The notes under the pieces are model-generated. The model saw only the letters and a program-made list of their open reading frames with translations. It did not search any database and was not told the DNA's origin. From positions 1-51,737 of the forward strand of contig LKMQ01000001.1 in assembly GCA_001564145.1 (NCBI GenBank): a DNA stretch of 51,737 nucleotides, in the 5' to 3' direction. The translations under genes were made by a program, and so were the position numbers. The stretch is from Nanohaloarchaea archaeon B1-Br10_U2g29. GTDB taxonomy: Archaea > Nanohalarchaeota > Nanosalinia > Nanosalinales > Nanosalinaceae. This document shows, one piece after another, positions 32,702 through 47,576 of this stretch. The stretch's first letter is position 1; every line of letters begins with the position of its first letter.

Positions 32702-34462
32702 ATGGCACAACAATCAGAACTTAAAAAAGAGAACGCAGACGGCGAAATCTACAAGGTCGCAGGACCTGTAGTCATCGCAACCGACATGCAGCCACAGATG
32801 TACGACGTGGTCTATGTTGGAGACGAAGGCCTGATGGGAGAAGTAATCCAGATCGAAGGGGACAAATCCTACATCCAGGTCTACGAAGACACAACAGGAG
32901 TAAAACCAGGAGAACCAGTAGAAAACACAGAACAACCACTATCCGTAGAGCTCGGTCCAGGACTTCTGGGAAGCATTTATGACGGGCTTCAGAGGCCTTT
33001 GGAAGAGCTTCAGAAAATAAGTGGAGACTTCATCGAGAGAGGAGAAGATGCACCAGGAATCAGTCCAGATAAAGAATATGACTTCTCACCTCGTGTAGAA
33101 GAAGGAGACACAGTAGAGTCAGGAGACGTAATTGGAACAGTAGAAGTAGATTACGGAAAGCACAAAGTAATGGTTCCCCCAAATTCAGAAGGTGGAGAAG
33201 TAAAGGATGTAGAGTCTGGTGAACACACAGTCAAGCAAACAGTAGTTGAGCTTGACTCAGGCGAAGAAATCTCTATGAGACAGGAATGGCCTATTAGAGA
33301 CTCAAGGCCTGCAAGAGAAGACTTGAAGCCAGAAGTACCGCTTGTAACAGGACAGAGAGTGCTTGACGGGTTATTCCCGCTGGCTAAAGGAGGTACTGCA
33401 GCAGTACCTGGGGGATTCGGAACAGGAAAGACAGTAACACAACAAAGCCTGGCAAAGTTCTCAGACGCAGACATCATTGTATACATCGGATGCGGAGAAC
33501 GTGGGAACGAGATGACAGAAGTACTGGAAGAGTTCCCAGAACTGGAAGACCCACAGACAGGAGATAAAATCATTAATCGTACAGTACTAATTGCAAACAC
33601 ATCCAACATGCCTGTAGCAGCTAGAGAGGCCTCAATTTATACTGGAGTTACAATTGCAGAGTACTTCAGAGACATGGGTCTCGACGTTGCACTGATGGCA
33701 GACTCAACGAGCCGTTGGGCAGAAGCAATGCGTGAAGTATCCGCAAGACTGGAAGAGATGCCCGGAGAAAGAGGATATCCAGCATATCTATCCTCAAGAC
33801 TTGCAGAGTTCTATGAAAGAGCAGGAAGAGTTGAACCCCTAGGCGTAGAAGAACCGGGTTCAGTCTCAATTGTTGGAGCAGTCAGCCCACCTGGAGGCGA
33901 CTTCTCGGAGCCGGTAACTCAAAACACTTTAAGAGTGGTGAAAAACTTCTGGGCGCTTGACTCCGACCTAGCTGAGAAGCGGCACTTCCCATCTATTAAC
34001 TGGGATGACAGCTATTCAGGATACAAAGATAAATTAGCTGATCACTTTGAAGATGAAGTAAATGAAGACTGGCAGTCTAACATCCAAAGAATGAGAGACA
34101 TTCTGCAGAAGGACGGAGAGCTACAGGAAACAGTACAGCTTGTTGGAAAGGACGCATTACCTGACAGAGAAAGACTAACTCTAGAAGTCGGTACAATGGT
34201 TAAACAGTTCTACCTACAACAGAATGCCTTCCATCCAGTTGATGAGTACAGCCCTCCAGAAAAGACATTCCATATACTGGAGACGATTCTTGATTGGGCT
34301 GATGAGGCCTACGATGCACTAGAAGATGGGGCGATGGTCGAGGATATCATCTCATTGAGCAGTAAGAACCAGATCAGTGAGTTAGCGACCAGTGAAGACT
34401 TCCTAGATGTAAAGGAAGAAATCAAAAATCAGATGAACGAAGAGTTTGAGGAGGTAAGATAA
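32702..34462 (+). CDS. atpA: A-type ATP synthase catalytic subunit A
   Basis: Walker [11 protein letters not shown], non-homologous-region insert, 586 aa, no intein. Confidence 0.95.
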
Positions 34463-34463
34463 A

Positions 34464-35849
34464 ATGGTACAACAAGAATACAAGACAATTAGCGAAGTTA
34501 AAGGCCCTCTAGTCTTTGTAGAAAAGACCGAGGATATCGCCTACGGAGATATTGTAGAAATCGAAACACCTGACGGAAACGTCAAACAAGGAGAAGTCCT
34601 AGAAACTTCTAAAGACGTTGTAATTATCCAAGTCTACGAAGAGACACAGGGAATTGGCCAAGATGCCAAAGTACGTTTTATGAATGAAAACGTAAAGATG
34701 CCTGTAACCGAAGACCTACTAGGAAGAGTACTGGATGGTAAAGGCCAGCCAATCGACAACGGGCCAGAAGTAATCCCAGATGAAGAAAGAGATATTGTCG
34801 GAGAAGCAATCAACCCATCCAGCAGAGAACTACCAGAAGACTTCATCCAGACAGGCGTTTCAACAATCGACGTCATGAACACATTAGTCCGAGGACAGAA
34901 ACTCCCAATATTCTCAGGATCAGGCCTACCGCACAACGAACTTGCAATGCAAATCGCACGACAGGCAGATATTAAAGGAGACAAAGAGTTCGCTGTAGTA
35001 TTCGCAGGAATGGGAATTACAGAAGAAGAAAGCCAAGAGTTCATCGAAGAACTTGAAAGTACTGGAGCGCTTGAAAGAAGCGTAATGTTCCTGAACAAGG
35101 CCTCAGATCCAGCACCGGAGAGAATTATTACCCCGCGTATGGCTTTGACAACTGCAGAGTACCTGGCATATGAGAAGGGAATGGAAGTACTTGTAATTAT
35201 GACCGATATGACCAACTACTGTAACGCACTTAGAGAGGTAAGTGCAGCACGTGAAGAAGTACCTGGTAGAAGAGGATACCCAGGATACATGTATACAGAC
35301 CTTGCAAACCTTTACGAGAGAGCAGGGATTATTGATGGCCGTGAGGGAAGTGTTACACAGTTGCCAATCTTGACGATGGTTGGAGACGATATGACACACC
35401 CTATTCCTGACCTTACAGGATATATTACAGAAGGCCAGATTGTAGTTGACAGAGACCTCGACAACCAAGATATAGCACCTCCAATCGATGTGCTTCCAAG
35501 CCTTTCCAGACTGATGGACAATGGTATAGGAGAAGGTTACACTCGAGGCGACCATGGAGACGTCAAGGACCAACTATATGCTTTGTATGCAGAAGGACAG
35601 GACCTGAGAGATCTTGTAGCAATCGTTGGAGAAGACGCTCTTTCAGATAGAGATGAGAAAATCCTCAAGTTCACCAATATGTACGAAAAACATTTCGTGG
35701 ATCAGGGATTCAATGGCAACCGTCAGATTGAAGAGTCTCTTGAACTCGCATGGGACTTACTCTCAATCGTTCCAATGGATGAACTAACAAGAATCGACAG
35801 AGAACTCAGAGAAGAAAAACTGGAAGACAGAAACCCAGAGTTCAACTAG
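34464..35849 (+). CDS. atpB: A-type ATP synthase subunit B
   Basis: 461 aa. [15 protein letters not shown] and SRLMD motifs. Start is 1 nt after the atpA stop. Confidence 0.95.
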
Positions 35850-35862
35850 AGGGCTTAAAAAT

Positions 35863-36495
35863 ATGAGTCAAGACGTAAAACCTACAAGAAGTGAAGAACT
35901 CCGGTTAAAAGAGAGAATTGACTTAGCGGAAAACGGTCACTCAATTCTTGAGCAGAAAAGAGATGGCCTTATCCATGAGTTCATGGAAGTAGTTGGCGAA
36001 GCTAAAAACGTCAATGAAGAACTCGCCAACTTATACAGCCAAGCCAGGCTTAAACTTCTTCTCACAGAGGTATACGATGGAGAGGCCTCAATCCAAGCCA
36101 ATGCATTGAACACTGAAAATGGCTCGGAAATCGAACTTGAATCACAGAATATAATGGGTGTAAAAGTACCTGAAATTGAGTCAATACAGGTCAGCAGAGG
36201 CTTAATGGAAAGAGAGTACGGTCTTACAGATTCTTCTGCAAGGATAGATGCAACGGCAGAGAAATTCGAAGAACTTTTAGAGAAAGTCGTAGATGCAGCA
36301 GAGACGCAGACTAAGATTATGAGGTTGCTAAATGAAATAGAGAAGACAAAGAGACGAGTAAACGCTTTAGAACACAAAATCATTCCGGAAATGCAGGAAG
36401 GCCTTGATAAGGTATCGCAGCTACTTGAGGAAAGAGAAAGAGAAGAGACTTTCCGTATGAAGAAGATTAAGGAAATGCAGGAAGAAGAGGCCTAG
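35863..36495 (+). CDS. atpD: A-type ATP synthase subunit D (central stalk)
   Basis: 210 aa. VKPTRSEELRLKERI N-terminus and RRVNALEHKIIPE motif. Confidence 0.9.
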   Translation: MSQDVKPTRSEELRLKERIDLAENGHSILEQKRDGLIHEFMEVVGEAKNVNEELANLYSQARLKLLLTEVYDGEASIQANALNTENGSEIELESQNIMGVKVPEIESIQVSRGLMEREYGLTDSSARIDATAEKFEELLEKVVDAAETQTKIMRLLNEIEKTKRRVNALEHKIIPEMQEGLDKVSQLLEEREREETFRMKKIKEMQEEEA

Positions 36496-38337: not shown

Positions 38338-39552
38338 CTATTTCTCCTCTGGTTCTGCATCTTTAGCATCAGGCATTTTCTTGTCGCCAGCATCCTTTGC
38401 TATCTTTGAAGGATCCATATTTGGAGCTATTTTTTCAGCTTCATCTTCCTTCATATCCCTTAAATCTTTACCAACCTGGGAAATGAAGTCCCTGGAATCT
38501 GATTTAAGTTCGTAAAGCTCTTTCTCACCAACGTCATCCAACTCTTTCTCCTTAATCTTTGAGATTACTTGATCCCATTTTTCAAACATTTCAACATGTT
38601 CCTCATCTACATCAAGGTTGTCAGCTACAGCCTTTGGAAGATCCTCCTTATCTTCTGGAGGCTCTACATCCTGTGATTTAAGCGCTGCAACATTAGCTTT
38701 CAGGAACTTTTTGTAGTCTTCCACTATGTTCTGGACCTTTTTTCTTGCACCCATTTGAGATACGAGTTCATGCATCCTTCTGATAAACTTATCAGTCTTC
38801 TCAAGATGTTCGTCTACAGCTTTACCTGTTACATCTTCAGGATTTTTTTCTCCTAAATCTCCGAAGTCATAGATGTCCTGAGCGATCTCAACGTATTCCT
38901 GTTCAAGCATATCATCTACAAACATGTCCTCTAAGACGTTAGGTACGTTTTCTTTAGCTGGAGGGTTCTTCCCTGCTAACATGATTGGTGCTTGTCCTGC
39001 ACTAGCCATCGCTTGTTCAAGTTTATGAGGTATTGAGGATTTAACTGTCTGTTCTGCTTTCTTATATCCTGCTGCGCCAGTTCTTAATCTTTTTCTGACT
39101 GACTCCTGTGTTCCAGAAATTCTACCTCTCTGAAGAAGCCGTTTAGCAGGCATAAAAATCCCTGTATCATATACAGGCTCTCCATTACGCACTGCTTCAA
39201 TAGCTAGTGGCTCTCCTTTTCTAAGAGAATCCCAGAAATCTGTCAGGAATGGGAAATACTGAATAGTAATTCTATCATCTGTTTCCTTCGCCAAACTTGT
39301 AACTTTCTTTCTGATCTTCTGTTTGGCATCGTCAGGAACATCTTTCTCTAATTTAGTATCATCTAATACAACTAAAGTATCTATATCGCTGTCATGGCCA
39401 TGCTCTCCTTTCGCAACACTACCCCACACGGCTACTACTTTAACCTTATCACCTAGTTTGTCAACCAGTTTATCGGAGAACTCTTGAGCAGCCTCCATCC
39501 TTCTCTCTTTTGACTTCTCTCTCATATCCTGAAGTTTATCCTTTGAACTCAT
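38338..39552 (-). CDS. polymerase-beta-superfamily nucleotidyltransferase fused to a helical (HEPN/KNTase_C-like) domain and a charged C-terminal tail
   Basis: VVAVWGSVAKGEHGHDSDIDTLVV is the GS-x(n)-DxD minimal NTase motif. The following ~150 aa are helical, and the last ~130 aa are K/E/D-rich. Confidence 0.65.
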   Translation of the reverse strand: MSSKDKLQDMREKSKERRMEAAQEFSDKLVDKLGDKVKVVAVWGSVAKGEHGHDSDIDTLVVLDDTKLEKDVPDDAKQKIRKKVTSLAKETDDRITIQYFPFLTDFWDSLRKGEPLAIEAVRNGEPVYDTGIFMPAKRLLQRGRISGTQESVRKRLRTGAAGYKKAEQTVKSSIPHKLEQAMASAGQAPIMLAGKNPPAKENVPNVLEDMFVDDMLEQEYVEIAQDIYDFGDLGEKNPEDVTGKAVDEHLEKTDKFIRRMHELVSQMGARKKVQNIVEDYKKFLKANVAALKSQDVEPPEDKEDLPKAVADNLDVDEEHVEMFEKWDQVISKIKEKELDDVGEKELYELKSDSRDFISQVGKDLRDMKEDEAEKIAPNMDPSKIAKDAGDKKMPDAKDAEPEEK

Positions 39553-39573: not shown

Positions 39574-40161
39574 ATGGAAACAGACTTAAAAACTTTCCCA
39601 TATATTTGTTACTTGAAGGTACTAATGAGTGAAGAATATTATCCGATGTGGGATGAAGGCAAACTTCGTGGAGATTACATAGGGAGATTTGACTCATATC
39701 AAACATTAGTAGAAGAAAGCAGCCCTGACATAATCTACCTCAATGGAGCTCCTGAAGACGAGATAGATGATAGAGCTGATTGGTCATTGGTACATGAAAG
39801 CAATCTAATAGAGTACGGAAATATGTCAGAACATGAAATACATTTTTTTGGCCCAGAAGAAGAATTATCAAAAGTGAAAGGCAAAATGAGGCATGAGAAT
39901 TTACCTCCAACAATGTTATTGGACGGCCAAAAAAACAGGTTAGAAGAATATAAGGAACTAAGAGATAATATTGACGGAGATGAAAAGATTCATTTTATCG
40001 GTAGCGATTACACAATAGAGCAAGATAGAATACTACAGGAACATGTTTTACCTAATATTCAAGCAGAATTTATAGGGGCAGAAACTGGCAAAGATAGTTC
40101 AACTGAAAGAATTAAACGTAGACTATATGCTGAAGCACTTAAACTCGCTGATAGATTTTAA
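39574..40161 (+). CDS. hypothetical protein
   Basis: 195-aa ORF. A more likely start is MSEEYYPMW at 39625 (AT-rich element ~22-34 nt upstream). No motif recognised. Confidence 0.5.
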   Translation: METDLKTFPYICYLKVLMSEEYYPMWDEGKLRGDYIGRFDSYQTLVEESSPDIIYLNGAPEDEIDDRADWSLVHESNLIEYGNMSEHEIHFFGPEEELSKVKGKMRHENLPPTMLLDGQKNRLEEYKELRDNIDGDEKIHFIGSDYTIEQDRILQEHVLPNIQAEFIGAETGKDSSTERIKRRLYAEALKLADRF

Positions 40162-42771
40162 TTAACGGTACTCTTCACCTGAAAATTCCTGAGGATTATT
40201 ATCTGCCTTGAGCGAAGCTGTACTAGTCCAAGTATAATTGAAATTAGTAGCCTCTAGAAGACCTTCCAAGGGATCAAACGCATGCTGCTCAATCTTCGCC
40301 CATTCCCGGTTAAATGAAGGCCTATCCATTCCGAAGAATCTCGCCATTAATGCTTCTTCCTCGTCCCTATACTCGCTTCCAGGATCAACTCTTGCAGGAT
40401 CAAGATCTTCAGGAGAAATTCCAAGCTCAATCATATTCATCGACAGCTTAGCCTTCTGAACAGTTCCAGACATCTCTCCACCGACTTCATACATAATCGA
40501 AGCTCTCTCATCACTTTGGGTAAACCCGTTCTGCACCATATCATGCAGCCAAGTGTAAAGCTGTGTATCTCCCCATCGGAAAGGCCCATGTATATGCCCT
40601 GTTCCCTGGCTACTTTCATGACCTGGTTTTGTAAGGTGGTACATCCTCACCATTTGAGCCAAAGGCCTGTCTTCATCTACAGGCACACCATAATCATTGT
40701 TTTGCGCAAGCCACTCCTCCTGTTCGACTAATTTTTCCATCTGCTTCCAAGGATCAACTCCAAAACTTGCAGTATGCTCCATATCTATAGTGAACTTCAA
40801 AGGACACCCATAAAGATCATCATGAAGTTCGCCAATCTCATTTCTAGCCGTGATATTCACCGCTCTACAAGCTGCAACCATATCTTTAGGCCTCCACAAC
40901 TTGAAATGCGAATTAGCACTACCGTTCATCGCCTCAAAATTAACTCCAATACCATAATCATTCATCCATTCAATCCAAGTACACCCTTTTCTAGAATCTT
41001 CCTCCACATATTGGTTTCCATCCATATGAAACTCTGACTCAATCTGAGTAAAATGGCTCCAAACAACCACTGCAGCAGAAGCAGCCGAAACATCCTTTTT
41101 GAAAGCCTCATTGCTCTCTAACCTCTGAATATAGTCTCCGCCAAAATCAACTTCCCCATGCTTACTTTCAACAAGTATCTCCCAAATGAACTCTGGGGCT
41201 TCCCATCCTTCATGAACGACTTGTTCTCCTACAGATTCTTTAATATTAGAAGTACACATCCAAGCTGGGATAATCTTATGGAACAAGTTAGACTCCATCC
41301 ATAAGGCCTGCTCAAAACTATTAATCAACTGCTTCAAAAGATCCTGATGCTTCCTTTCAGGAGACTTTGTCTCAGCACCTTCAGCCTCAAAATAGTCTGG
41401 GTTACCTCTCATTACTTTCTCAGCATGTTTGGCCAAGCTATATTTTTCATCAAATCCTTGGGCTCTTTCCTGTATTTGGGTCTGTGTAATATCAAGTCGA
41501 CTTTGAAGAACTCCTAGTTTAGTATCTACAGATATAAAGAATTCATCATCTCCATTCCCCTCCCAAAGTTTGTCCATGGATTCTTCAGCCAATTGCAAGA
41601 ATTGCTTTTTTAGGTTCTGTTCGCTAGGCAAATTAAGTTCTTGAATTTTCTCTTCAATGTCATTATTTTCTATATCCTCTCTATCTCTTAATATACCCCG
41701 AACTCTTTTCTCGATTTGAACTCCGTTCTTATTTAATTCATAAATCAATTCTCCTATCCTATTTAAATCATCTCCAGACCTTACTCTATTAGCTTGTTGG
41801 AATAGATCGGCCAGATCTGTTATCCTTGATATCTCAAACATATCTGAAAGTTCTGATAATTCTGATAGTTCGTCCGGCAAAATCTCCGTCAAATCTATTG
41901 GTTCTTCTAACTCAAGTTTGTTGTGATCTTCAATTAGCTCTCGCCATTTTAGGCCTGAACCCCTGTCCTGCATACTTACAGACTGTAGCATTGCAGCTTT
42001 CTCCAAAAGCTGATCTTCAGGATCTACTCCTTCTAGTTCTGACAAGTTATTCCAAAAATCGTCAGCAGCCTCAGACTGTGCCCTTCTCCAAGCTCTTCTA
42101 AATTTTGGCGAAAATCTCTGGAACAATCCATAAATTTGATACTCGTCATCTACTTCTGAAAGAATGAAGGCCTTGTAGAAGTTCTCCAAGAACTCTTTAT
42201 TCCTGAACATGTTCTTCCCTGACTGATCTCGCATCTCTCTAAATTCTTCATTATATTCGCTGATTGGGAATCCGAATGGATCTAGGCCTACGTCCTGCGC
42301 CATTCTTTCTTTTAGCGGTGGTTCTTCATCAGTTGAGATATGAGGGTTAATTCTTGAGATTCTGAAGTCTAAGTCGGTTCTTTCCTCTTTTTCTTTTTTG
42401 AATGAAGCGAATTCTTGAAGATAGTTTGTGAAATAGTTGTGAGTTACGTCAAATCCTCTTCCTTGACCTGTTTTGTAAGCTGAGGTAAACCCTACATTAG
42501 GGTCAGCGTGGAAAGATACGTCAAGTCCTAAATCCTGTATAGTACTGTAGAGATCTGCTCTATCAATATGATATGTAGTAGGGTTTTCTACCTGTATCTC
42601 CATTTCACCGCCTCCTCGCTGAGCAAGCTCTCCAACTCTTCTGGCGAGCTCTGCAGGAACCTGCCCAATGTCAAGGCCTGAAGTATTTCCAACTTTGTAG
42701 TTAAGTTCCTGAGGATTAATTTCTTTATCTTCTGATTCAAATTTTTCTTTGAGTTTATCCATCAGGTACAT
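40162..42771 (-). CDS. large (869 aa) uncharacterised cytoplasmic protein; possible xylose-isomerase-like TIM barrel split by a long helical insert
   Basis: Ordered candidate metal ligands: VSFHADPN (H88), INPHIS (H144), VNFEAMNG (E613), FTIDMEHTASFG (D663/H666), MYHLTKP (H712), GHIHGPF, IMYEVGGE (E762). No TM helix, signal peptide or P-loop. Alternative start at 42762. Confidence 0.6.
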   Translation of the reverse strand: MYLMDKLKEKFESEDKEINPQELNYKVGNTSGLDIGQVPAELARRVGELAQRGGGEMEIQVENPTTYHIDRADLYSTIQDLGLDVSFHADPNVGFTSAYKTGQGRGFDVTHNYFTNYLQEFASFKKEKEERTDLDFRISRINPHISTDEEPPLKERMAQDVGLDPFGFPISEYNEEFREMRDQSGKNMFRNKEFLENFYKAFILSEVDDEYQIYGLFQRFSPKFRRAWRRAQSEAADDFWNNLSELEGVDPEDQLLEKAAMLQSVSMQDRGSGLKWRELIEDHNKLELEEPIDLTEILPDELSELSELSDMFEISRITDLADLFQQANRVRSGDDLNRIGELIYELNKNGVQIEKRVRGILRDREDIENNDIEEKIQELNLPSEQNLKKQFLQLAEESMDKLWEGNGDDEFFISVDTKLGVLQSRLDITQTQIQERAQGFDEKYSLAKHAEKVMRGNPDYFEAEGAETKSPERKHQDLLKQLINSFEQALWMESNLFHKIIPAWMCTSNIKESVGEQVVHEGWEAPEFIWEILVESKHGEVDFGGDYIQRLESNEAFKKDVSAASAAVVVWSHFTQIESEFHMDGNQYVEEDSRKGCTWIEWMNDYGIGVNFEAMNGSANSHFKLWRPKDMVAACRAVNITARNEIGELHDDLYGCPLKFTIDMEHTASFGVDPWKQMEKLVEQEEWLAQNNDYGVPVDEDRPLAQMVRMYHLTKPGHESSQGTGHIHGPFRWGDTQLYTWLHDMVQNGFTQSDERASIMYEVGGEMSGTVQKAKLSMNMIELGISPEDLDPARVDPGSEYRDEEEALMARFFGMDRPSFNREWAKIEQHAFDPLEGLLEATNFNYTWTSTASLKADNNPQEFSGEEYR

Positions 42772-42780
42772 AATTATTTT

Positions 42781-44460
42781 TTATTTCATTGTGTTCATTC
42801 CGAATCCGATTTTGTAGTCGAAGTAGAATTCGAATCTGAACTCTGTGATCATATCTTGTATTGCCGTATTTTGTTCGCTGCCATCTAAATAAAATTGGTC
42901 GGTTTGGCCTGTGAACTTTGCTAGTTCTTTATTTACTCCTTTAAGCATTTTTGAATCTTTATCGCTGCTTTCTCCTAAATCGATATCTAATACTTCTTTT
43001 AAGGCCTCAAGGTGTTCTTCTGAGAAGTCTTCCGATATACTTTCTACTGTGTCAAGTCCGTCTTCTACTCTCCTTAGCTTGGAAGAAAATTCTATTGCCA
43101 CTCGCTCATCTAGCTCTTCTTCAATCATTTCCCTAAGTTCTCTGATAGATATCTCCTGTTCCTTTCTAGCTTCCTTAATTTTCTGATTATCTTCATGGAC
43201 ATTGAAATCGCCGACGTATTCGCTGTGCATCTCCTCTACTAGCTCCTCTGCTTCTTCAATCTTAGGTTCAAAGAAGTTTTCAAAGACGTGTTTGCATACT
43301 ACCGCAGGCCTCCAAAATACCACTCCTGTTGAGCTTCCGCCCGGCTGATTCGGTTGCTCGCCCTTCGCTGTAACTACGTGAACGCCAAATATGTGCATAA
43401 TTCTGTAATGAGTAATCTTGTCGTCGTCACTTTCTGGAACTAGTCTTCCGTTTTCTTTCTTGAATCCTTTGTGGCAAATAAATTCAAGTTGTCTTTCCAT
43501 TGAGGAGTAGCCTTTCCATTCGTAGTATTTGGTTAAATCACCTTGTTGGTCGCCCATCTCATTTATCATCACTACATCTCTAACATAAGGCTCTAACCAG
43601 TCTTTTGTTTTCTCAATACTTTGTTCGATGTTCCTTAGCTGTGCTTTTAACTCTTTAAGCCGGCGGTTTACCTCACTACCATACATATCCTTCCATTTCT
43701 CATACATCGTGTATTTCTTACGAAGAATAGCCTTCTCATTTCTCGGTAGATCTGCTAAAGCACCGTCATTAAAGTCATCAGCAGTCTTATCGTCTTTCCC
43801 TTCAGCCATCTGCTTTGCGGTCTTCAGGTCATTAACTGAGTCCATCTCCATGAAATCTGCGACAATCGTCGGATAGATATTCTGGTCTCTGAGGAATCTC
43901 AAGGCCTGTTCATCTGCTCCTTGGCCTCCAGCTCCAGCTCCGTCTACAAGCTGGACAAAATCTCCTTTAAGCATATCTTCATCATGTGAGTTGAAGGATT
44001 CTGCCCGGCTTCTTAACTTTCTGATATCATGCTCAAGTAAGTGCTTGGTTTCGAGAATATCTGAGAAATTGCTTAAAGTCTGGTTTACACGTTGCTCAGC
44101 CTGTTGTTTTCTCTGCATGAACTCATCATGCAACTGGCTTTGTGGGGAAACAAATATTGATTCTGTAACGCGACTAACATTGTAACCTAAATCGTCATCA
44201 TATTTGTCAGGTGCTGTTAAAACAACTCCATATCCTGTTCCTTGTCCTCCAGACTTACCTTTCAGCTTTCTGATAGGTTGCCCCATTATCTTCATTATGG
44301 ATCCTCCTTCTTCACGGAGCTCGTCCAGATTGGAAATCTTTCCCTTCTTGATATCATTCACTAAGTCTGCTGCTTCTCCTGAAACACCGCCACCATGACT
44401 GTCAAAATGGACGAACGTATGGCCAAACTTGCAGGTTTCAGAATCTCCGCCCGAGGACAT
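42781..44460 (-). CDS. large (559 aa) uncharacterised cytoplasmic protein, operon partner of the 869-aa protein
   Basis: Stops 9 nt before the next gene's start. Gly-rich loops SHGGGVSGE, GKSGGQGTGYG, GAGAGGQGAD. Central coiled coil (RRLKELKAQLRNIEQSIEKTKDW). No family recognised. Confidence 0.6.
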   Translation of the reverse strand: MSSGGDSETCKFGHTFVHFDSHGGGVSGEAADLVNDIKKGKISNLDELREEGGSIMKIMGQPIRKLKGKSGGQGTGYGVVLTAPDKYDDDLGYNVSRVTESIFVSPQSQLHDEFMQRKQQAEQRVNQTLSNFSDILETKHLLEHDIRKLRSRAESFNSHDEDMLKGDFVQLVDGAGAGGQGADEQALRFLRDQNIYPTIVADFMEMDSVNDLKTAKQMAEGKDDKTADDFNDGALADLPRNEKAILRKKYTMYEKWKDMYGSEVNRRLKELKAQLRNIEQSIEKTKDWLEPYVRDVVMINEMGDQQGDLTKYYEWKGYSSMERQLEFICHKGFKKENGRLVPESDDDKITHYRIMHIFGVHVVTAKGEQPNQPGGSSTGVVFWRPAVVCKHVFENFFEPKIEEAEELVEEMHSEYVGDFNVHEDNQKIKEARKEQEISIRELREMIEEELDERVAIEFSSKLRRVEDGLDTVESISEDFSEEHLEALKEVLDIDLGESSDKDSKMLKGVNKELAKFTGQTDQFYLDGSEQNTAIQDMITEFRFEFYFDYKIGFGMNTMK

Positions 44461-44485
44461 ATAGCTTATTTGAAATAGATTCTAC

Positions 44486-44494
44486 TTAAAAATA
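44486..44494 (-). promoter_or_regulatory. TATA-like element (minus-strand TATTTTTAA) for the 559/869-aa operon
   Basis: Centre about 30 nt upstream of the ATG at 44460. Confidence 0.3.
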
Positions 44495-44537: not shown

Positions 44538-45005
44538 ATGGATTTCCTACTGAAAAGAAGATTAAACCCTTTCCTCCTACTAACCACAGTCGTAGGCCTA
44601 TCACTATTAGTAGGGTTATCTATAGTATATCAAACCCAGTTTGAGGAAATAGCAGGAGAAAGATCCGACAAAGAAACAGAAATACAAGAGCTAAACAACA
44701 AAATAGATAGTTTAAACCAAAACAATACAATTTTGACAGAAAGAAACGAAGAGCTGGAGAATAGAACTATTGAATTGGAAGATGAGATAGAGAGTATAGA
44801 GTCGGAAGAGTCAGGCCTGGAGGAACAGGTTGGAAACTTGCAGAATCAGACAGATCAGTTGAGAGAGGAGAGAAATGAGTATAGAGATGATTTTGAAAGT
44901 ATACAGCTAGATATAAGGCAGTTGTGCGAACAAGAAGACTTGCAGGAAGACAGTTCTGAAACTATATGCGACATCTGGGCTGAGGGTTGGGACGATGAGA
45001 ATTGA
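44538..45005 (+). CDS. membrane-anchored coiled-coil protein
   Basis: N-terminal TM (FLLLTTVVGLSLLVGLSIVY), then ~100 aa of heptad repeats. First gene of the MoxR cluster. Confidence 0.6.
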   Translation: MDFLLKRRLNPFLLLTTVVGLSLLVGLSIVYQTQFEEIAGERSDKETEIQELNNKIDSLNQNNTILTERNEELENRTIELEDEIESIESEESGLEEQVGNLQNQTDQLREERNEYRDDFESIQLDIRQLCEQEDLQEDSSETICDIWAEGWDDEN

Positions 45006-45729
45006 AGGCCTGCTTAAACGTTTGAAGAGGGAGTACTGGAAAGTTAAAGTATTGCAGAGTAGTTTGGATACGTTAATTTTAGTGCTTGTACTGAATTTTT
45101 TTGCTTTCTTAGCAAGCTATAGCTATGATTTCAGAATCCTTGGAGGAGTCGCCGGGATATTCTTCATAGCTAATCTATTTTATAGAACAAGAGATTACTC
45201 TGTTGAAATATATGAACAGGAAAACTCCGAGCTCCAGGAACTGTTAAGAACTGCTAGAGACAACCTTGATAAACGCGATGAAGTATCCGAGGCCTTATTC
45301 GGTGATGTAATGGACCGTGCAAGAACTGTTACTTCTGAAAGCATTATACCCAGTGAGATACTCGTTCAGAAACTTTTCTTGATTGGTGGTTTGGCGATAC
45401 TGACTGCTATCTCAGGCCTAGTAGTCCCTGCTATTGATGTTGATACTTCAGGAGTCTACAGTAGTTTTGATAATCTAGTCGATTTTGAAGACGATAGTTC
45501 TGATGATTTCAGGGGAAACGTCTCAGATGTAATAGGAGAGGAGTCGGATCTTGATGATACGGGTTCAAATGTTGATATAGACATTGTAGGTGAGGGAGAA
45601 AGCTTTGAGGAAAATATATTGAGAGGTTTTGAAGGAGATACAGAGCTACGTTATGAATCCTCACCTGAAACAACCGGCGATGAAGAGTTGATGAGAGAGT
45701 ACAGTCTCAGGATTAGAGACCTCGAATAA
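44995..45729 (+). CDS. hypothetical 3-TM membrane protein with acidic C-terminal tail
   Basis: Its start overlaps the upstream gene by 11 nt. Hydrophobic helices at aa ~25-60 and ~125-145. D/E-rich tail. Confidence 0.6.
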   Translation: MRIEGLLKRLKREYWKVKVLQSSLDTLILVLVLNFFAFLASYSYDFRILGGVAGIFFIANLFYRTRDYSVEIYEQENSELQELLRTARDNLDKRDEVSEALFGDVMDRARTVTSESIIPSEILVQKLFLIGGLAILTAISGLVVPAIDVDTSGVYSSFDNLVDFEDDSSDDFRGNVSDVIGEESDLDDTGSNVDIDIVGEGESFEENILRGFEGDTELRYESSPETTGDEELMREYSLRIRDLE

Positions 45730-45736
45730 ATTATTA
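45727..45736 (+). promoter_or_regulatory. possible internal TATA-like element upstream of moxR
   Basis: ATAAATTATT, centre about 29 nt upstream of the ATG at 45760. Overlaps the stop of the preceding gene. Confidence 0.25.
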
Positions 45737-45759
45737 ATGAACAGTATCTAATAGTAGTT

Positions 45760-46722
45760 ATGAAGTTGACCGGTAAAGGATCAGTAAAGTATGAGAAAGT
45801 AAATGAAAAACTGGCAGAAATCAAAAACGAAGTATCTAAAGTCATAGTTGGACAGGAAGACGTCATTGACCAGGTACTAACCTGTATGTTATGTGATGGA
45901 AACATATTACTGGAATCTAACCCTGGAATGGGTAAGACAAAGATGGCTTCAACAATCTCACAGAGCATAGGACTAGAATTTTCACGTATCCAGTCAACCC
46001 CTGATTTAATGCCTTCAGATATTACCGGAACACATATTATCGACGAATCTTCAGGTAAAGCAGAGTTCGAGTTCCAGGAAGGCCCAATCTTTGCGAACAT
46101 GGTTTTAGCAGATGAAATCAACAGAGCCACGCCTAAAACCCAGTCAGCTTTGTTGGAAGCGATGCAAGAGAAACAGGTGACAGTGGGTAACAGATCATAT
46201 GAGCTTGAAAGGCCTTTCTTCTTGATTGCAACTCAGAACCCGATTGAGCAAGAAGGTACCTATCCTTTACCTGAGGCGCAGAGAGACCGCTTCATGATGA
46301 AAATTAAACTTGACTTCCCTGAACATGAGGAAGAACAAAAGATTGTGAAAAGATTCACAGAAGAACTGGACTTTGAGCCTGAATTAAACAAAGTTATCTC
46401 AAAGGCCTCGCTTGTCAAGTTACAGGAGTTTACACGGCAGGTTCCAATAGCAGATGACATACTGAATGATGTTGTCAATATTGTGCGGGCTACAAGGAAA
46501 AAACAGGAACTTGATTATGGTGCTTCACCACGTGCCTCGATTAACTTGGTTTTAGCAGCTAAAGGCCATGCGTTAATTAATAACCGGAACCACGTTTCTC
46601 AGAAGGACGTAAATTCTATGGCTAAGCCTGTTTTAAGGCATAGAATTGGTTTAAGCTTTGCAGCTGAGAAAAAAGGTTTGACAGAGGACGACATAGTAGA
46701 GGATATAGTGGATGATGTATGA
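45760..46722 (+). CDS. moxR: MoxR-family AAA+ ATPase
   Basis: Walker A ESNPGMGKTKM, Walker B VLADEINRATPKTQSALLEAMQEKQVTV (a MoxR hallmark). 320 aa. Confidence 0.9.
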   Translation: MKLTGKGSVKYEKVNEKLAEIKNEVSKVIVGQEDVIDQVLTCMLCDGNILLESNPGMGKTKMASTISQSIGLEFSRIQSTPDLMPSDITGTHIIDESSGKAEFEFQEGPIFANMVLADEINRATPKTQSALLEAMQEKQVTVGNRSYELERPFFLIATQNPIEQEGTYPLPEAQRDRFMMKIKLDFPEHEEEQKIVKRFTEELDFEPELNKVISKASLVKLQEFTRQVPIADDILNDVVNIVRATRKKQELDYGASPRASINLVLAAKGHALINNRNHVSQKDVNSMAKPVLRHRIGLSFAAEKKGLTEDDIVEDIVDDV

Positions 46723-47576
46723 TAGAAGCAGAATTCCTTAAAGAATTAGAGCAGTTCCAAGTAGCGTTAGAGAAGAACTCTTCAGAGATGAAACAAGGAG
46801 AGCAGCAGAGCAACTTTTCAGGTCAAGGAATGATATTCAAAGACCACAAAGAGTATGTCCCAGGAGATGATATTAGAAGAATTGACTGGAAAGCCTATGC
46901 CCGGACCAAAGAGTTCTTCATCAAACGTTACGACGAAGAGAGAAACGTAACATTACATATAGTTCTTGACAGAAGCAGTTCGATGGATTTTGGCGATATA
47001 AACAAGTATGAATACGGCGGTAAAATAGGCCTTGGATTAGCTTATATGACGATGAAGACTAATGATCGTTTCAAATACTCTGTTTTTTCCGAGACATTGA
47101 CAGATTTAACTTCCGCAAGAAAGAACGGAAATTTAGTGCAGCTGATTGATACATTAAACGGTATGAGGAAAACCCCTGAGAGCCGTGTAGAACACTGTAT
47201 AACAGAGTACAGTTCAAGGATTAAAAACAAGTCTGTGGTCGTTATTATTTCAGATTTCCTAACTGATTTAGAGCAGATTGAGTCAAGTCTTCAGGCCTTA
47301 AAAGGCAGCCAAGTAATTCTAGTTAACATTTTTGATGAAGAGGAGCTTGACCCATCTTTTTCTGGAGATACTATTTTGGAAGATCCTGAATCTGATTCTA
47401 CATTGAGGGCCTATCTTTCAAGAAGCACTAAATCAAGTTACAAATCCAAACTGAAGAAGCATACTGAAGAGATAGAGGAGTTATGTGACAAATATCAGGC
47501 CTCTTATTATATGATGTCAACTGGTGAAGATTTTTTCGATTCTTTTATAGATATCTGGGAACATGTTAACCAGTGA
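46719..47576 (+). CDS. DUF58-family (vWA-like) protein, MoxR partner
   Basis: GDDIRRIDWKAYARTKEFFIKRYDEERNVTLHIVLDRSSSMDFG is the DUF58 signature. ATGA overlap with moxR. Confidence 0.85.
   Translation: MIEAEFLKELEQFQVALEKNSSEMKQGEQQSNFSGQGMIFKDHKEYVPGDDIRRIDWKAYARTKEFFIKRYDEERNVTLHIVLDRSSSMDFGDINKYEYGGKIGLGLAYMTMKTNDRFKYSVFSETLTDLTSARKNGNLVQLIDTLNGMRKTPESRVEHCITEYSSRIKNKSVVVIISDFLTDLEQIESSLQALKGSQVILVNIFDEEELDPSFSGDTILEDPESDSTLRAYLSRSTKSSYKSKLKKHTEEIEELCDKYQASYYMMSTGEDFFDSFIDIWEHVNQ

Follow-up and report, generated by a model that had tools for sequence, protein, structure and literature searches.

A 51,737-nucleotide (nt) stretch of contig LKMQ01000001.1 (assembly GCA_001564145.1) of Nanohaloarchaea archaeon B1-Br10_U2g29, here called the window, contains two long adjacent genes that raise the question of what their products, of 559 and 869 amino acids (aa), do. 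An earlier note on this DNA had described the pair as family-less and had read the 869-aa protein as a split xylose-isomerase-like TIM barrel with an obligate partner. The explanation that we judge best, with somewhat better than even confidence, is that the 869-aa protein belongs, as a strongly diverged member, to that barrel superfamily, with endonuclease IV (Endo IV) as its closest relative, that its barrel carries a large insert, and that it acts as a trinuclear-metal phosphoesterase in complex with the 559-aa partner and in linkage with a nucleotidyltransferase (NTase). The two genes and the elements between and before them are:

42781..44460, minus strand: partner gene, 559 aa, ATG start (open reading frame (ORF) list)
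42772..42780, minus strand: intergenic spacer, 9 nt, from the partner stop codon to the barrel-gene ATG
40162..42771, minus strand: barrel gene, 869 aa, ATG start (ORF list)
44484..44493, minus strand: TATA-like element ATTTTTAAGT, A/T-rich, read from the sequence, 24-33 nt upstream of the partner ATG

The coordinates given earlier for both ORFs were exact, as was the 9-nt gap between them on the same strand, and the spacer is consistent with co-transcription and coupled translation. A TATA-like element had been placed about 30 nt upstream of the first ATG; it was found as ATTTTTAAGT within the 77-nt divergent intergenic region, where it may serve as the promoter. The G+C content of the gene pair, 0.40-0.41, is the same as that of the remaining window. 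All of the motifs quoted for the 869-aa protein (VSFHADPN, INPHIS, VNFEAMNG, FTIDMEHTASFG, MYHLTKP, GHIHGPF and IMYEVGGE) were located in its translation, and no Walker A motif was found in either translation. The highest 19-aa hydropathy was only 0.86 and 0.79 for the two proteins, so neither has a transmembrane (TM) helix.

Pfam and NCBIfam searches with both window proteins gave no match near threshold, and PDB sequence searches with single sequences and family profiles of both were empty or at noise level. The pair is thus family-less with respect to curated libraries, in which no well-characterised family was matched directly by either protein; the family itself, however, is large, with more than 300 members in Nanohaloarchaeota and Aenigmatarchaeota. 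PADLOC and PHROGs models matched neither protein nor their Aenigmatarchaeota orthologs, and a defence-system or phage origin of the pair was therefore rejected.

Predicted fold and domain layout of the 869-aa protein

An AlphaFold2 model of the 869-aa protein, built from a 43-sequence alignment, had a mean predicted local distance difference test (pLDDT) score of 82.6 and a predicted TM-score of 0.80, with 420 residues at pLDDT >=90 and blocks above 90 in both barrel halves. Eight strands were modelled (25-30, 56-60, 84-88, ~138-144, 610-613, 658-663, 708-712 and 757-761), most of them followed by a helix in the pattern of a (beta/alpha)8 barrel, while residues ~150 to ~575 were all helical. 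The conserved His, Glu and Asp residues are located at the C-terminal ends of strands 3-8 of the model. Strands 1-4 (residues ~20-150) and strands 5-8 (residues ~575-800) would together make up the barrel, and the domains map to the window as follows:

42322..42714, minus strand: N-terminal half-barrel, residues ~20-150, strands 1-4, with H88 ending strand 3 and H144 ending strand 4
41050..42321, minus strand: insert of ~425 aa, helical, within the loop that follows strand 4, residues ~151-574 (boundaries approximate)
40372..41049, minus strand: C-terminal half-barrel, residues ~575-800, strands 5-8, with E613, D663/E665/H666, H712, H726/H728 and E762
40162..40371, minus strand: C-terminal tail, residues ~801-869 and stop codon, with the conserved EHAFDPL (H830, D833, P834)

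Foldseek searches of the PDB with the model returned L-ribulose, D-psicose and D-tagatose 3-epimerases and endonuclease IV (8axy, 3aal) as best matches, at probabilities of 0.9-1.0. The earlier call of a split TIM barrel was borne out by the eight strands in barrel order, by the named residues at strand ends and by the superfamily of the top Foldseek matches. On the basis of the model, the 869-aa protein is a split (beta/alpha)8 barrel of the xylose-isomerase-like (AP_endonuc_2) superfamily.

The insert varies in length and sequence, and the region from ~170 to ~500 is highly variable in the 43-sequence alignment, whereas the conserved W530 and H573 close the insert. In the Aenigmatarchaeota relatives, whole proteins of ~600 aa, the insert is ~250 aa long. 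An (ELS)3 repeat had been singled out within an acidic helical middle of ~450 aa; the repeat is present (ELSELSELS, residues 301-309) but belongs to a stretch of the insert that is variable and was modelled with low confidence, and it is not conserved. In TIM barrels the catalytic face is built from the loops that come after the strands, so that this insert is likely to shape the substrate site or to cap it.

Tail residues 828-869 were modelled as disordered (pLDDT <50). Despite this disorder, the tail is conserved across both phyla as EHAFDPL.GLL followed by a terminal W..EE(Y/L/F)(R/K) (residues ~831-869, window 40165-40281, minus strand), which makes it a candidate short linear docking segment.

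Conservation of the metal-ligand positions

Conservation was counted in a 66-sequence alignment that spans two phyla at ~20% overall identity. The register against Endo IV was read from the hhalign alignment of the relatives (P0240 numbering), and the window equivalents were taken from the 66-sequence alignment. The nine ligands of E. coli Endo IV (Nfo) we take to be H69, H109, E145, D179, H182, H216, D229, H231 and E261. The following correspondences were obtained by alignment:

H88, end of strand 3: Nfo H69
H144, end of strand 4: Nfo H109
E613, end of strand 5: Nfo E145
D663/H666, D-x-x-H after strand 6: Nfo D179/H182
H712, end of strand 7: Nfo H216
H728, loop after strand 7: Nfo H231
E762, end of strand 8: Nfo E261

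H88, H144, E613, D663 and E762 are identical in 66/66 sequences, and H666, H712 and H728 are retained in 60, 64 and 65, respectively. Eight of the nine Endo IV ligand positions are 91-100% conserved and in register, and this motif conservation is far beyond chance. H573, E665, W530, H830, D833 and P834 are further near-universal residues among the 66 sequences. Within the Nanohaloarchaea, the 43-sequence alignment is invariant at H88, H144, E613, D663, H666, H712, E762, N142, P143, E665 and H728. The arrangement is that of Endo IV, with His after strands 3 and 4, Glu after strand 5, D-x-x-H after strand 6, His after strand 7 and in the loop beyond it, and Glu after strand 8. The African swine fever virus (ASFV) enzyme of the Endo IV family binds three Zn through His78, His115, Glu142, Asp179, His182, Asp231, His233 and Glu271 (PMC7076025).

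The tetrad E613, D663, H712 and E762 also aligns, by way of the relatives, with E155, D185, H211 and E251 of UlaE. This E-D-H-E set is all that UlaE has in common with the family, and UlaE carries non-ligand residues at the positions of the four extra His. Because UlaE matches only at E-D-H-E, the metal centre looks trinuclear and Endo IV-like rather than sugar-isomerase-like. The ligand pattern put forward earlier had identified the right superfamily, but its comparison with xylose isomerase proved to be the weakest of those made (hhalign expectation value (E) 0.78), and the set is of the Endo IV trinuclear type, not the four-ligand sugar-isomerase type.

Family breadth and relationship to endonuclease IV

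Searches with the 869-aa protein yielded 51 full-length homologs (39-99% identity), and all of the named ones are Nanohaloarchaea (Nanohalobium, Nanosalina, Nanohalococcus, SG9). A hidden Markov model (HMM) of the Nanohaloarchaeal barrel proteins also retrieved relatives of ~500-750 aa, matching mainly the C-terminal third. The connection between this profile and the Aenigmatarchaeota relatives consists of HMM E values of 1e-18 to 1e-4 over that third, together with common architecture and synteny. A profile built from these distant relatives retrieved more than 229 proteins, the named ones all Aenigmatarchaeota. Most of these carry precomputed PF01261 matches marked 'faint', and PF01261 was detected below threshold in 5/10 sampled relatives, on the N-terminal ~90 residues (15.8-20.8 bits, profile positions 7-89; gathering score 31.1 bits). 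The window 869-aa protein itself gave no PF01261 match and did not reach the gathering score. Names assigned by JGI to the relatives include many instances of 'sugar phosphate isomerase/epimerase' and one of 'endonuclease IV'.

The Aenigmatarchaeota profile was searched by plain hmmsearch against 177,635 PDB sequences. Only three matches of this wider family were statistically significant, and all three were to Endo IV enzymes: 2x7v and 4hno of Thermotoga maritima (E 4e-4) and 6khy, the ASFV AP (apurinic/apyrimidinic) endonuclease (E 9e-4). Both halves of the T. maritima enzyme were matched in the correct order; the next match, D-tagatose 3-epimerase, had an E of 0.25. When the insert columns were removed, hhalign aligned the Aenigmatarchaeota profile with Nfo and APN1 over 249 columns (Nfo 3-283) at E 1.1e-5 and a probability of 82%. 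Against single sequences the values were 1.9e-4 for Nfo, 1e-3 for UlaE, 0.095 for Hyi and 0.78 for XylA, and reversed-sequence controls gave E 0.07-0.42. The superfamily assignment made earlier (xylose-isomerase-like/AP-endonuclease-2) is thus upheld by the sub-threshold PF01261 matches in distant full-length relatives and by the significant matches of their profile to Endo IV structures. The corresponding hhalign comparisons of the Nanohaloarchaeal profile with Nfo, UlaE, Hyi and XylA gave only noise, owing to the low diversity of that alignment (effective number of sequences ~2.2-2.9).

The class II AP endonucleases of the Endo IV family (Nfo, APN1, ASFV pE296R; within PF01261) belong to the same barrel superfamily but differ from the 869-aa protein in several respects. 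With its ~285 aa, Endo IV forms one compact barrel domain and acts alone, whereas here the protein is 869 aa long, has an insert of ~425 aa and is paired with a partner of ~550 aa. The gating Tyr72 is replaced by Pro or Leu, and the equivalent of D229 is variable. The conserved C-terminal tail EHAFDPL ... EEY[R/K] is a further difference, as is a Pfam score below threshold. No canonical Endo IV was found in the window, whose 52 kb are too short to stand for the whole genome.

The partner protein and its linkage to the barrel gene

More than 186 full-length homologs of the partner were found at 44-100% identity, the named ones all Nanohaloarchaea. Its model (pLDDT 76) has an alpha/beta domain at the N-terminus; long helices span residues 109-157 and 240-298, residues 319-389 form an antiparallel sheet of four strands, and the C-terminal region is helical. 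The three Gly-rich loops that had been noted in this protein were found at about residues 21-28, 67-79 and 172-181. A core in the central helical region is invariant across the phyla (H144, D145, R147, D173, P197, I199, D202, F203, E242, L246, K249, W256 and P291). Structure comparisons of the partner with the PDB and with viral structures returned only coiled-coil noise (probability <=0.38), and comparison with PDB sequences, including a search with the cross-phylum partner profile, yielded no match.

Partner orthologs elsewhere bear the names 'helix-turn-helix domain-containing', 'multiprotein-bridging factor 1 family' and 'ribosome-binding protein aMBF1'. These names look unfounded; HTH_31 was detected in 1/48 members at E 0.012, and assignment to a helix-turn-helix or MBF1 family was rejected. 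A PspA/ESCRT-III-like identity was likewise set aside, as the matches were marginal, occurred in 4/48 members and were typical coiled-coil cross-matches. A Zn site formed by C10/H14 with C389/H391 was also rejected; these residues are conserved within Nanohaloarchaea only and not across phyla.

The pairing was assessed in a scan of GTDB species representatives, for which a mixed two-phylum alignment was too divergent to be used. The scan gave 75 loci, and pairing was counted in the 71 loci, drawn from these 75 and loci L001-L004, that had at least 1.5 kb of upstream sequence. By HMM, a partner homolog lies upstream in 69/71 Aenigmatarchaeota loci, and in 62 it is adjacent (-60 to +200 nt) on the same strand. 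In three Aenigmatarchaeota contigs the barrel gene is preceded by a Pfam-less gene of 478-586 aa, identified as a partner homolog by hhalign (98%, E 1e-13 to 1e-15). The partner adjoins the barrel gene in 6/6 Nanohaloarchaea loci, with gene gaps of -1 to 25 nt in the five other Nanohaloarchaea; in Nanohalobium constans the two genes are 8 nt apart and have the same neighbours. The pair does co-occur in related genomes of both phyla, and these frequencies support the earlier proposal that the partner is obligate.

Downstream of the pair, in the same direction, lies a third gene:

38338..39552, minus strand: Pol-beta-superfamily NTase, 404 aa (PF01909, E 7.7e-10)

This NTase is found downstream in 6/6 Nanohaloarchaea loci and within 1.5 kb downstream in 33/65 Aenigmatarchaeota loci, and BLASTP matched it to a full-length Aenigmatarchaeota ortholog at E 4e-43. 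Four more Nanohaloarchaea (43-72% identity) have the order partner, barrel, small opposite-strand ORF, NTase. Against PADLOC, the NTase matched only generic minimal-NTase models. A DNA ligase gene lies nearby in 12 loci.

Proposed mechanism and alternative explanations

By analogy with Endo IV, a first metal site would be formed by H88, H144 and E613, a second by E613, D663, H712 and E762, and a third by H666, H728 and, less certainly, H726. A trinuclear site of this type leads us to expect hydrolysis of a phosphate ester or diester, presumably by metal-activated water. The barrel protein would form a stoichiometric complex with its co-translated coiled-coil partner, and would be functionally linked to the 404-aa Pol-beta-type NTase. 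Its descent from Endo IV and its link to the NTase point to nucleic acid as the most likely class of substrate, be it DNA or RNA ends that are damaged or blocked, or abasic sites. What the analysis shows is the fold, the place in the superfamily, the conserved ligands with their register and the linkage of the genes; metal content, chemistry, physical association of the proteins and substrate are inferred from these.

Several observations weigh against this explanation. The Nanohaloarchaeal family profile has no direct match to Endo IV or PF01261, and the link is transitive via the Aenigmatarchaeota relatives. In the Foldseek comparison the E values were weak (0.06-0.5), only ~100-140 columns of the C-terminal half were aligned and the epimerases were placed slightly above Endo IV; alignment of one half is what a 425-aa interruption of the barrel would lead one to expect, and alone it is not decisive. 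The proposed clustering of the ligands in space derives from strand positions, topology and alignment. The ninth ligand position (Nfo D229; H726 in the window) is His in only 34/66 sequences, in a loop whose alignment is uncertain. A ligand set of this kind also supports oxidative chemistry in MNIO enzymes, and an insert as large as this one on the catalytic face may leave no room for duplex DNA. The DNA-gating Tyr of the Endo IV family is highly conserved in the motif H-x-x-Y (Y72 in EcNfo, Y81 in AsfvAP; PMC7076025), but here it is replaced, in H88-A-D-P91 with P91 nearly invariant in Nanohaloarchaea and in an invariant H-G-S-L in Aenigmatarchaeota. Finally, a two-TM hairpin of 52-63 aa is encoded on the same strand within 120 nt upstream of the partner in 46/63 Aenigmatarchaeota loci and hints at a membrane-associated, possibly non-DNA role. 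This membrane mini-protein, the lost Tyr and the position of the insert on the catalytic side all caution against labelling the 869-aa protein an AP endonuclease.

The JGI name carried by many relatives raises the alternative of a sugar or sugar-phosphate isomerase or epimerase, in which the E-D-H-E set would carry out proton transfer on a ketose, with the insert and partner serving regulation or assembly. Ketose 3-epimerases do lead the Foldseek matches, E613-D663-H712-E762 corresponds to the epimerase metal site on strands 5-8, and UlaE was aligned over 267 columns at E 1e-3. However, H88, H144, H666 and H728 have no UlaE counterpart and match Endo IV ligands instead, only AP endonucleases were significant among PDB sequences (D-tagatose epimerase, E 0.25), and Hyi and XylA were at noise level. 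The ketose 3-epimerases and UlaE are mononuclear enzymes of ~290 aa that lack the four extra His, the insert and the partner, and their profile similarity to the family is weaker than that of Endo IV. The linkage, moreover, is to an NTase, with DNA ligase nearby in 12 loci, and not to sugar kinases, transporters or aldolases. We regard this alternative as rather unlikely, and the annotation 'sugar phosphate isomerase', which stands beside 'hypothetical' in current databases, is probably wrong.

Less probable again, in our estimate, is an MNIO-like (DUF692, MbnB-type) multinuclear iron oxidase that, together with the obligate partner, would turn over a peptide or some different substrate. MNIO enzymes are Endo IV-related TIM barrels with a tri-metal site of His, Asp and Glu that require a partner protein, and in MbnB-MbnC that partner is encoded by an adjacent gene. 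The nearly universal partner observed here would fit such a system, as would the small ORF that precedes the partner in 46/63 Aenigmatarchaeota loci; these small ORFs, however, encode two-helix hydrophobic hairpins, not typical precursor peptides, and are absent from Nanohaloarchaea, and no precursor-peptide gene lies in the window. DUF692/PF05114 matched no member scanned, although no dedicated DUF692 profile-profile comparison was made, and no MNIO structure appeared among the PDB sequence matches or the top 50 Foldseek matches. The partner, a coiled-coil protein of ~550 aa with no detectable similarity to anything known, is unrelated in size and architecture to partners of the MbnB-MbnC type. 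Least probable of all is that the pair forms a catalytically dead scaffold, a structural or cytoskeletal coiled-coil assembly for which the enzyme ancestry would be irrelevant. The partner consists mostly of long helices, its marginal Pfam matches are of coiled-coil type (PspA, apolipoprotein and dynamin-like helical domains) and the insert, too, is helical and large. Inactive enzymes do not keep their ligands, though, whereas here eight positions have stayed 91-100% conserved in two phyla at ~20% identity. All three alternatives are less well supported than a trinuclear-metal phosphoesterase.

A bolder extension of the phosphoesterase explanation, which we hold to be doubtful, is that the partner, the insert-bearing metalloenzyme and the NTase (joined in Aenigmatarchaeota by the two-TM mini-protein) make up a hitherto unrecognised machine that cuts and re-tailors a phosphodiester polymer. 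Such a machine would be confined to Nanohaloarchaeota and Aenigmatarchaeota and might be associated with the membrane. It would be a functional system that is new although its catalytic core is old, distinct from a housekeeping AP endonuclease. One conceivable task is the processing of nucleic acid, damaged or taken from the host, in archaea that depend on a host and have little biosynthetic capacity of their own.

DPANN archaea have genomes of ~1 Mb, and the gene pair occupies 3.5-4.3 kb in nearly every Nanohaloarchaeon and Aenigmatarchaeon examined. Its retention despite such small genomes suggests that the pair is probably important to these organisms. The catalytic core belongs to a known superfamily and is therefore not categorically new; for the insert architecture, the obligate partner, the conserved module of three genes and the confinement to two DPANN phyla, no description was found in the literature searched. 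The trinuclear-metal phosphoesterase supplies a concrete catalytic hypothesis with named ligand residues. It would also represent an unusual course of enzyme evolution, in which an Endo IV-type barrel tolerates a catalytic-face insert of 250-425 aa and has gained an obligate partner. With nucleic acid as the substrate, the family would bring a so far unrecognised repair or processing activity to symbionts with reduced genomes; with any other substrate, it would widen the chemistry carried out by the Endo IV metal centre.

Neighbouring genes and other features of the window

The two-TM mini-protein is absent from the window. Its examples in Aenigmatarchaeota (L003:4983-5144, L004:5109-5300) consist of two hydrophobic helices with a short P..(E/H)Q loop between them, and it may tether the complex to the membrane. 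Divergently upstream of the Aenigmatarchaeota operon lie tandem paralogs of ~175 aa with the motif YSGPNP, of which 109 copies were counted in 55 loci (for example L003:3721-4893 and L004:3987-5041, both minus strand); they have no Pfam match. They were rejected as members of the module, as they occur in Aenigmatarchaeota only, with no copy found in Nanohalobium or the window. The idea of a conserved RNA gene ahead of the Aenigmatarchaeota operon was also rejected, with no tRNA and no Rfam family detected there, and the conserved pseudo-ORFs in that region are best explained as other frames of the opposite-strand ~175-aa genes. Net charge was uninformative as a clue to DNA binding; the median isoelectric points in Aenigmatarchaeota are 6.3 for the barrel protein and 8.8 for the partner, against a background of 9.0.

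Between the barrel and NTase genes, an ORF at 39574-40161 (plus strand) represents an opposite-strand ORF of 163-210 aa that is present in 6/6 Nanohaloarchaeal loci. Its sequences fall into two groups, one comprising the window and L085 (58% identical) and the other the mutually related L001, L084, L086 and L087. The ORF has no Pfam or NCBIfam match, and it is conserved in position while evolving fast.

On the other side of the pair, divergent from the partner gene, 44538-47576 (plus strand) encodes a TM-plus-coiled-coil protein of 155 aa, a DUF7502 protein of 244 aa, a MoxR-type AAA+ ATPase of 320 aa and a DUF58/vWA-like protein of 285 aa. This MoxR/DUF58 cluster lies beside the pair in 5/6 Nanohaloarchaeal loci (the window, L001, L084, L085 and L086) but does not do so in L087 or in Aenigmatarchaeota. 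At 32702-36495 (plus strand), three ORFs of 586, 461 and 210 aa have the lengths and position of the A-type ATP synthase A, B and D genes that are annotated close to the pair in other Nanohaloarchaea; judged by synteny and length, they probably encode these subunits. Two tRNA genes are located at 662-736 and 1304-1377, both on the minus strand (Rfam RF00005, 70 and 71 bits).

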